Source of the DNA: a virus
Virus record (IMG/VR): IMGVR_UViG_3300031134_000007
Location: 1 to 64,000 of that record
DNA: 64,000 nt
Strand: one strand, 5' to 3'
Both the position numbers and the translations under genes were made by a program. Under the pieces are notes generated by a model, which was not told where the DNA came from, did no database searches, and was given only the letters and a program-made list of their open reading frames with translations. Each line of letters opens with the position of its first letter. Position 1 is the stretch's first letter. Of the stretch, positions 17,657-17,897 are shown in pieces.

Positions 17657-17866
17657 GTTTTGAGATACCACGTGGCTGGTCGTGGTTACGGGTATTCGTC
17701 AGCGTACTTTCAGCTGATCCCAAGTCTCCTATTCCCCGCCGTCTGGCCATTACAGGTGCCCAATTCGAGCATTCATCTCAAAACCGCAATTACTAAGGAA
17801 GCGCATAAATCCAGAACAAGGTAACTGCTTCGATAGCTCAGAAGAACCACGAGAGACAGTTACCTT
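17657..17866 (-). ncRNA. Candidate structured ncRNA or leader with long-range pairings
   Basis: Two perfect 10-bp inverted repeats plus an 8-nt loop-to-distal complement, in a gene-free interval. Confidence 0.55.
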
Positions 17867-17897
17867 ACATACTAATATACGCAGTAGTATTTTTATA

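Follow-up and report, generated by a model that had tools for sequence, protein, structure and literature searches.

A conserved 130-nt structured RNA at the upstream edge of a small-RNA-rich region in a phiKZ-type jumbo phage of Enterobacterales

The DNA considered here (below, the window) comprises positions 1 to 64,000 of the virus record IMGVR_UViG_3300031134_000007, that is, 64 kb from the start of an IMG/VR record of 104 kb with CheckV completeness of 37%, and is a fragment of the genome, roughly 280 kb long, of an uncultured jumbo phage. At positions 17656–17785 of its minus strand lies a conserved, non-coding, strand-specific structured RNA of 130 nucleotides (nt). It is located at the upstream border of a small-RNA-rich region and is followed by an open reading frame (ORF) of 72 amino acids (aa), the gene of a 194-aa P-loop protein, and a tRNA-Tyr gene. 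The original prediction had placed here, at the head of an island transcript, a pseudoknotted RNA of approximately 210 nt composed of an upstream hairpin (hairpin 1) and a second domain linked by a long-range pair. The second domain (130 nt in the window, 130–182 nt in relatives) has held up, while hairpin 1 and the long-range pair have not; the genuine new RNA family is the 130-nt second domain alone, an orphan structured phage RNA. Its parts in the window are as follows.

17656–17785, minus strand: the core structured RNA, 130 nt, with homologues in L002/L087, L003, L004, L088 (3' half), Salmonella phage vB_SalM_SA002 (SA002), and Erwinia phage pEa_SNUABM_48 (pEa48)
17774–17785, minus strand: 5' strand of the terminal helix P1, pairing with 17656–17667 (12 bp in the window, 13 bp in relatives)
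17656–17667, minus strand: 3' strand of P1, the partner of 17774–17785
17757–17771, minus strand: hairpin P2, UGCUCG/UGGGCA (TGCTCG/TGGGCA in the DNA), with one compensatory pair
17743–17755, minus strand: hairpin P3, stem CUG/CAG, with a conserved 7-nt loop UAAURGC
17735–17739, minus strand: 5' strand of P4, GCGGG, pairing with 17688–17692
17721–17731, minus strand: small hairpin P4a, UAGG-AGA-CUUG, weakly supported, with one-sided changes only, all of which keep the pairs
17699–17717, minus strand: hairpin P5, UCAGC/GCUGA, with a nearly invariant 9-nt loop UGARAGUAY
17688–17692, minus strand: 3' strand of P4, CCCGU
17668–17685, minus strand: hairpin P6, stem CCACG/CGUGG, loop AYCARCCR; the proposed pseudoknot targets its 5' strand

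Among the labels used below, L092 and L093 denote the SA002 and pEa48 loci, respectively, W02 denotes pEa48, and G000 is the partial record of the window phage. The consensus fold was obtained with RNAalifold from six full-length sequences, and the pairs were counted on seven sequences; the covariation set covers five independent lineages. The consensus contains seven helices with 41 pairs, in which the 12–13-bp terminal helix P1 closes a five-way junction formed with P2, P3, P4 (holding P4a and P5), and P6. Standard pairs occupy 98.8% of the 258 pair cells, compared to 34–39% when the 3' partners are slid by one to three columns; changes on both sides of a pair are seen in 10 pairs, compared to zero to three in the slid controls; and none of 500 shuffles matched the observed covariation score. 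The whole 262-nt spacer also folds better than its shuffles (z = −3.56). Five helices are supported by covariation, and the junction strands, as well as the loops of P3, P5, and P6, are almost invariant.

The closing helix of the original prediction is present (17785–17774 with 17667–17656) and has 12 pairs, one more at each end than had been noted, and so are the two inner hairpins described there, TGCTCG/TGGGCA and TCAGC/GCTGA, which are P2 and P5, respectively. In P1, compensatory replacements U–A to C–G and G–C to A–U occur at two positions. P2 features a compensatory replacement of C–G by U–A, changes of G–U to A–U, and a variable loop sequence. Two out of three pairs of P3 are altered on both sides in L003 and L004 (CUG/CAG to CCU/AGG). 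P4 is a long-range helix with the consensus GCGGN paired to NCCGY, the innermost pair being G–C, C–G, or U–A. The combination of P3 and P4 is preferred to the middle fold CCUGU/AUAGG suggested by a single sequence, since the latter is broken in L003. Compensatory changes in P5 involve four out of five pairs (in SA002, pEa48, and L088). The P6 stem is invariant in all seven sequences, and thus covariation speaks neither for nor against it. Directly 3' of the 5' strand of P4, two extra hairpins are inserted in L003/L004 and in pEa48; as these insertions at a single site are mutually unrelated in sequence, this part of the structure is tolerated periphery. A scan of all column pairs for tertiary contacts yielded no stacked run outside the seven helices and many spurious covariations, the latter because of the number of lineages, only five.

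The 9-nt loop of P5 ends with UAC or UAU in every lineage, that is, with one of the two tyrosine codons, and the element lies beside a tRNA-Tyr gene; this is probably trivial, being a 3-nt match with a C/U transition. A T-box-like display of a tyrosine codon by this loop was considered and dropped, given the triviality of such a short match and the 8.6-kb L003 locus, which retains the element and has no detected tRNA gene.

Many pairs of the core are G–U, which would become A–C on the opposite strand, and in all five lineages the sense strand folds better than its complement by 3–5 kcal/mol; hence, the RNA is read from the minus strand, same as the genes. The suggestion of the original prediction that a genuine structured RNA is encoded on this strand is thus borne out, for the second domain, by its conservation, compensatory changes, and G–U pairs. 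The lengths in different lineages differ by 1, 48, and 52 nt, and not all of these differences preserve a frame; no reading frame is open across all relatives, and the pEa48 core has stop codons in all six frames. Since no frame is shared and the pEa48 copy is closed in every frame, the core is not coding. It could be argued that no RNA function is involved and the conservation arises from a gene of a small protein, from a signal in the DNA, or by chance, the more so as two antisense ORFs overlap the element in the window (17482–17796 and 17501–17824, plus strand). However, neither the frame-breaking length differences nor the compensatory substitutions in the stems, nor the G–U pairs that make the structure strand-specific, are compatible with this explanation, which we consider hardly credible.

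The core is 130 nt long in the window, L002, and L087, 131 nt in SA002, 178 nt in pEa48, and 182 nt in L003 and L004; in the cultured phages it occupies L092:3499–3629 (SA002) and L093:3499–3676 (pEa48). In the blastn comparison of L003 and L004 with the window, DNA similarity is confined to the second domain (about 81%), the flanking genes being too diverged for a good alignment at the DNA level. A distant-mode search of cultured phages revealed the second domain, 88% identical, in unannotated DNA of SA002 and Erwinia phages pEa_SNUABM_37 and pEa_SNUABM_48. Overall, the core retains 81–88% DNA identity where the neighboring 194-aa protein is only 60–63% identical, and the sequence conservation ends at the last base of P1. 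One more copy is cut by the start of the metagenome contig L088, which begins midway through the core and retains its 3' half.

A covariance model built from these homologues (R1) finds exactly one copy in each of G000, SA002, and pEa48; with filters off, it has no match in the syntenic loci of Moabitevirus and Agricanvirus phages, nor in the whole Moabite and AH06 genomes. Near-identity DNA searches with the 701-nt region against phage and Escherichia coli collections gave no match. Four pattern scans of IMG/VR (with a 15-mer, with GACTTGGGA..CAGCTGAAAG, with a 26-nt 3' pattern, and with a 5' pattern) returned the same three contigs only, the remaining matches being chance ones inside coding regions; a pattern scan of GTDB genomes produced no match to the core, and a metagenome protein scan added only L087 (of the L002 type) and the truncated L088. 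The RNA family is therefore narrow, being found in one small clade of phiKZ-type jumbo phages of Enterobacterales. Fragments matching the region were also found in two wastewater runs that are labelled RNA-Seq, available as contigs only, and probably represent DNA. In one of them, X20, three contigs of 151–157 nt carry diverged copies of the core (6–12 differences; window positions 17661–17783) followed by unrelated sequence, and hence wastewater holds more relatives than the searchable collections.

We now turn to the sequences immediately upstream and downstream of the core, where the following features were considered (all on the minus strand).

17818–17866, minus strand: hairpin 1, lineage-specific, in the window and L002/L087 only, not a part of the conserved RNA
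17845–17852, minus strand: loop 8-mer UCGUGGUU, complementary to 17680–17687 (probability by chance 0.011–0.09), not conserved
17868–17871, minus strand: TATG, a possible phiKZ-type late start motif; the motif is present, and its use in the window phage is a candidate one
17794–17801, minus strand: anti-Shine–Dalgarno sequence CUUCCUUA, pairing with UAAGGAGG at 17641–17648, in the window lineage (window, L002) only

All pairings of the original prediction do exist in the DNA. The 10-bp stem of hairpin 1 is formed by AAGGTAACTG (17866–17857) and CAGTTACCTT (17827–17818), and its loop 8-mer TCGTGGTT (17852–17845) is an exact complement of AACCACGA (17687–17680). According to the original prediction, these parts make up one two-domain RNA of about 210 nt, with the pairing of 17845–17852 and 17680–17687 being a functional pseudoknot; in a variant of this model, the pairing would be a lineage-specific switch, the loop competing with the 3' strand of P6 for CCACG. 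Besides the exactness of the complement, this model may refer to its rarity, as only 1.1% of dinucleotide shuffles yield a perfect 8-mer complement to the core when the 29-nt loop alone is counted, and to the overlap of the target with a strand of an invariant helix, which makes an alternative pairing physically possible. However, hairpin 1 is absent from four out of five lineages: it is missing in L003, L004, SA002, and pEa48, where nothing upstream pairs with the site, and the longest complements to the core within 150 nt upstream are of 6–7 nt and fall at unrelated places. The check for covariation of the long-range pairing in relatives was thus negative, the partner hairpin being absent there and the complementarity not being replaced by anything else, which leaves the pseudoknot unsupported. 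Covariation within hairpin 1 itself is uninformative, since the window and L002 have identical sequences there. Moreover, if the whole 112-nt upstream stretch is shuffled, the rate of perfect 8-mer complements rises to 9%; both partners are locally engaged in the minimum-energy fold; and, the target being the 5' strand of the invariant P6, the 8-bp pair would undo a conserved helix. Taking all this into account, we regard a functional pseudoknot as quite improbable.

The origin of hairpin 1 may be different. It has an outer 7-bp clamp, GCGTATA (17882–17876) with TATGCGC (17807–17801), whose 3' arm matches the TTATGC arm of terminator-like clamp hairpins GCATAA...TTATGC at 23156, 32567, and 43662. 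Because of this resemblance to a dispersed hairpin family, hairpin 1 may be a terminator-like element belonging to the boundary of the upstream unit, a further argument against its role in a pseudoknot. The dispersed hairpins themselves are GC-rich, lie at 23156–23204, 32567–32607, and 43662–43718 on the plus strand with arms GCATAA...TTTATGC, and look like terminators, perhaps bidirectional ones.

The TATG noted earlier upstream of hairpin 1 is confirmed at 17871–17868, and a second one is located at 17804–17807, within the 3' arm of the clamp. In phiKZ, TATG is the core of late promoters, the G being position +1 (PMC4666361). As the 3' arm of the dispersed clamp hairpins on the plus strand contains this motif too, terminator and promoter signals may be fused in them. 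No extended motif around TATG recurs in the window, neither a pattern resembling phiKZ middle promoters, AANNTTACC, nor the combination GTTACCT...TATG was informative, and a scan for sigma-70 promoters and terminators found nothing at the element.

Downstream, the perfect ribosome-binding site mentioned in the original prediction is indeed present: AAGGAGGT at 17647–17640, 8 nt after the closing helix, is followed by ATG at 17635. In the window lineage, the helix formed by this Shine–Dalgarno (SD) region and the anti-SD extends P1 outward and is present in the minimum-energy fold, the SD region being only 24–31% unpaired in the ensemble. There is no equivalent of the anti-SD in L003 or SA002, and pEa48 has only a CCC/GGG extension over a GGGG SD-like run. 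Hairpin 1, its 8-nt loop complementarity, and the anti-SD helix are thus additions of the window lineage.

The broader neighborhood of the element in the window contains the following features.

17417–17635, minus strand: 72-aa ORF of no known family, following the element in the window, L003/L004, and pEa48 and absent in SA002
16810–17394, minus strand: gene of the 194-aa P-loop protein, just downstream of the element
16718–16802: tRNA-Tyr, found by the Rfam scan at gathering score and by ARAGORN
15139–15210, minus strand: hammerhead type III-like motif with a complete core CUGAUGAG...CGAAAC

The P-loop protein has homologues with 60–65% identity on contigs of 270–295 kb; 16 homologues were found on Logan/ENA contigs, and three in cultured jumbo phages (vB_SalM_SA002, pEa_SNUABM_37, and pEa_SNUABM_48), whereas remoter ones, with about 30% identity, come from Moabitevirus and Agricanvirus phages. 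The identity to the window protein is 94% for L002 and 60% for L003/L004 at the amino acid level. SA002 and pEa48 encode RNA polymerase beta-like proteins, as phiKZ-type phages do. By sequence comparison, then, the window phage is a relative of SA002 and of Erwinia phages pEa_SNUABM_37/48, and since the P-loop homologues and the RNA polymerase beta-like proteins place the “island” of the original prediction there, it is a region of a jumbo phage genome and not a bacterial island. The predicted fold of the P-loop protein is a single RecA-like domain (pLDDT 78.7) with weak structural matches only, to domain 1 of DEAD-box helicases and to RAD51/DnaB-type ATPases (TM about 0.4, E > 0.001); neither Pfam nor PHROG offers an informative family for the proteins adjoining the element. 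Where tRNA-Tyr is present (the window, SA002, pEa48), the P-loop gene sits between the element and this tRNA. A full-length gene of RtcB RNA ligase (428 bits) was observed in pEa48 (W02:91427–92575), and none was found in SA002 or the partial G000.

The element behaves as a self-contained module, present in one copy per genome and having variable neighbors on both sides. Upstream of the core, the window and L002/L087 have hairpin 1, L003 and L004 have unrelated sequence, and pEa48 has a tRNA-Asn ending 12 nt before P1, so that in this phage a primary transcript does not begin with the element. In SA002, the core is preceded by an unannotated tRNA-like sequence (L092:3221–3498; MN445183, about 176307–176584), which scores 34 bits with RF00005 and is not called by ARAGORN, and the space between it and the element is filled by at least two more T-arm-like segments. 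The gene following the element differs as well: in L088 it is another ORF about 105 nt away, with the 72-aa ORF beyond it, and in SA002 the 194-aa P-loop gene follows directly.

Other members of the neighborhood point to further small RNAs. The hammerhead-like motif has syntenic matches in SA002 (L092:5767–5819) and pEa48 (L093:6263–6315), with scores of 26.7–30.5 bits (26.7 bits in the window), below the gathering score of 48.5. Sub-threshold matches to the Y RNA model YrlA (32–42 bits, full model length, T-arm followed by D-arm) lie 0.5–1 kb upstream of the element in SA002 (L092:2459–2576) and pEa48 (L093:2873–2976) and are absent from the window; at this level the model is unspecific, with weak matches in 11 out of 14 control genomes. 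Finally, further blocks of the window, 16534–16694, 16108–16218, 15332–15434, and 14798–15186 (minus strand), are 77–86% identical at the DNA level to L003, SA002, or pEa48; they fall largely between long ORFs, near tRNA-Tyr and the hammerhead-like motif, and probably represent additional small RNAs of the island.

The main rival to the interpretation that we prefer, given below, is that the element is a cis-acting 5' leader, i.e., a riboswitch aptamer or a protein-binding operator for the next ORF, usually that of the 72-aa protein, controlling ribosome access next to P1. In the window, L003/L004, pEa48, and SA002, a start codon lies 16–29 nt past the end of the core, and the size of the core, its invariant junction nucleotides, and variable peripheral insertion are typical of aptamers; in the window lineage, the anti-SD (17794–17801) pairs with the SD, extending P1 outward, and the CCC/GGG extension of pEa48 covers the GGGG run. 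On the other hand, the downstream gene is not constant, being the 72-aa ORF, the other ORF of L088, or the P-loop gene of SA002; neither an expression platform nor the sequence past P1 is conserved; sequestration of the SD is absent in L003 and SA002; and in pEa48 a tRNA lies 12 nt upstream. In addition, P1 helices of typical ligand-switched riboswitches are much shorter than 12–13 bp, and a P1 of such constant length looks unsuited to ligand-dependent opening. Thus, the features expected of a riboswitch are found in part: a conserved aptamer-like fold is present, whereas a conserved platform is not, the downstream gene varies, and the SD is sequestered in the window lineage only. Translational riboswitch aptamers and the element are alike in size, in covarying helices around an invariant junction, in a tolerated insertion, and in the position before an ORF, and differ in that no known class matches, P1 is long and constant, a conserved platform is missing, and the gene context suggests no ligand. 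A leader function therefore seems unlikely on balance, although it is the strongest of the rivals.

What we tentatively put first, from the comparison of sequences, is that the element is a stable trans-acting RNA released from a polycistronic transcript. Such release seems the most likely course because the module and its long terminal helix, 12–13 bp in all cases, stay constant next to neighbors that differ on either side, and because tRNAs abut it. The element would be a module of a phage small-RNA island composed of tRNAs, tRNA-like RNAs, and a hammerhead-like motif. It would be transcribed together with its neighbors, may be excised by the nucleases that trim the adjacent tRNAs, and could persist as a stable RNA of 130–180 nt, with the long terminal helix protecting both ends. 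Its action would then be in trans, via a putative partner, either a protein or a tRNA-handling enzyme, for which it may serve as a scaffold or a decoy, as Y RNAs or 6S RNA do, and not through switching of a downstream gene; the most that the additions of the window lineage would do is link the module there to translation of the 72-aa ORF. Several observations weigh against this interpretation. The start codon lying 16–29 nt past P1 in four out of five lineages is also a leader-like arrangement, and the pairing of the window-lineage SD with an upstream anti-SD that extends P1 is a cis-regulatory feature. Besides, only five independent lineages stand behind the fold, and among them P6 and most of P1 never vary, so that parts of the fold are carried by thermodynamics alone.

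We compared the element with known RNAs. The original prediction recognized no family, and this agrees with the Rfam results: with the 4227 models of Rfam 15 at gathering score, tRNA-Tyr is the only match in the whole window, and a permissive scan of 17550–17950 (E up to 10) yielded no match, as did the scan of the relatives' loci at the element.

The topology of the fold raises the possibility of a tRNA-shaped mimic, recognized by proteins that process or target tRNAs and serving as a processing signal or a decoy against tRNA-directed defences of the host. Class II tRNAs have acceptor, D, anticodon, variable, and T arms, and the consensus of the element has the same order with nearly the same spacing: P1, 2 nt, P2, 1 nt, P3 with its 7-nt loop, 3 nt, the P4 arm, 2 nt, the 5-bp P6, 0 nt, and P1. 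The location of the element among tRNA-Asn, tRNA-Tyr, and tRNA-like RNAs fits this as well. However, neither ARAGORN nor the Rfam tRNA model RF00005 reports anything at the element in the window or the relatives. The “acceptor” is too long (12–13 bp against 7) and the “anticodon” stem too short (3 bp against 5); the T-loop and D-loop consensus and the CCA end are lacking, and the P2 loop is variable. Being purely topological and noticed after the fact, the likeness leaves us considering a tRNA mimic a rather unlikely explanation.

Even less probable, in our opinion, is a new self-cleaving or otherwise catalytic RNA helping to cut the island transcript. The complex junction with nearly invariant unpaired nucleotides and the hammerhead-like motif in the same island are what one might cite in its favor, but none of the known ribozyme models (hammerhead, twister, pistol, hatchet, HDV-like, and others) matches the element at 17550–17950 with E up to 10, and neither a conserved candidate for a cleavage site nor a processing motif in the flanks was found.

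Some known RNAs share general features with the element. GOLLD (RF01998) and ROOL (RF03087) are orphan RNAs with complex multistem junctions, often encoded by phages or prophages next to tRNA genes and possibly co-transcribed with them (Weinberg et al., 2017, PMC5737381). The common features are thus the orphan status, complex fold, phage origin, and proximity to tRNAs; however, GOLLD and ROOL are four to six times larger (581 nt on average for ROOL), have no similarity to the element in sequence or by covariance models, and come from other bacterial groups, while the element is restricted to a single clade of enterobacterial jumbo phages. The bacterial Y RNAs YrlA and YrlB are RNAs of 80–130 nt whose ends pair into a long stem enclosing a structured domain, and they occur in phages as well; processing of a single precursor can give several Y RNAs (Chen et al., 2014, PMC4201824). 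The element resembles them in the size range, the long terminal stem, and the occurrence in phages, and differs in having no T-arm or D-arm motifs; the YrlA model RF02553 does not match the element, and no TROVE domain (Ro60) was found in G000, SA002, or pEa48. An analogue of a similar kind is provided by the tRNA cluster of phage T4, whose stable RNAs C and D (species 1 and 2) are structured, about 120–140 nt long, and co-located and co-processed with phage tRNAs; to our knowledge, their function has not been established. T4 belongs to an unrelated phage family, and the two are likened by description, with no evidence of homology.

Several other candidates were considered and dropped. E. coli RNase P RNA (M1, rnpB; L102:317–693, minus strand) shares with the element the strings AGAUGAAUG (the J18/2 region of M1), CCACGACCAG, and GGGAUCAG. 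We treat this likeness as a coincidence: the three short strings come in a different order, the local alignment score is 20 compared to 17.1 ± 2.4 for shuffles, and RNase P models give no match up to E 10. The TPP riboswitch, considered because of the strings CUGAGA and one similar to AAUACCCGUA, was rejected, UGAGAU being paired inside P1 and RF00059 giving no match. A retron msr/msd, suggested by terminal inverted repeats followed by G, was rejected too, there being no reverse transcriptase nearby.

A broader alternative is a new class of ligand-sensing, protein-sensing, or catalytic RNAs specific to nucleus-forming jumbo phages. In the form of a decoy with the cloverleaf topology, it would engage tRNA-directed enzymes or defences of the host; in the form of a riboswitch-like sensor, an infection-state signal would set the expression of genes of the RNA island. 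We find this less probable than a leader function and more probable than a plain tRNA mimic, and unlikely as a whole.

The element, be it a stable trans-acting RNA as we tentatively suggest or otherwise, is directly testable, as it is present in three cultured phages, SA002, pEa_SNUABM_37, and pEa_SNUABM_48, and the correction of the first reading, with the second domain alone being the unit, shows what to clone and which pairs to mutate. Nucleus-forming jumbo phages turn out to carry islands of tRNAs, tRNA look-alikes, hammerheads, and orphan folds, and the element adds to them a compact 130-nt member with five covariation-supported helices.

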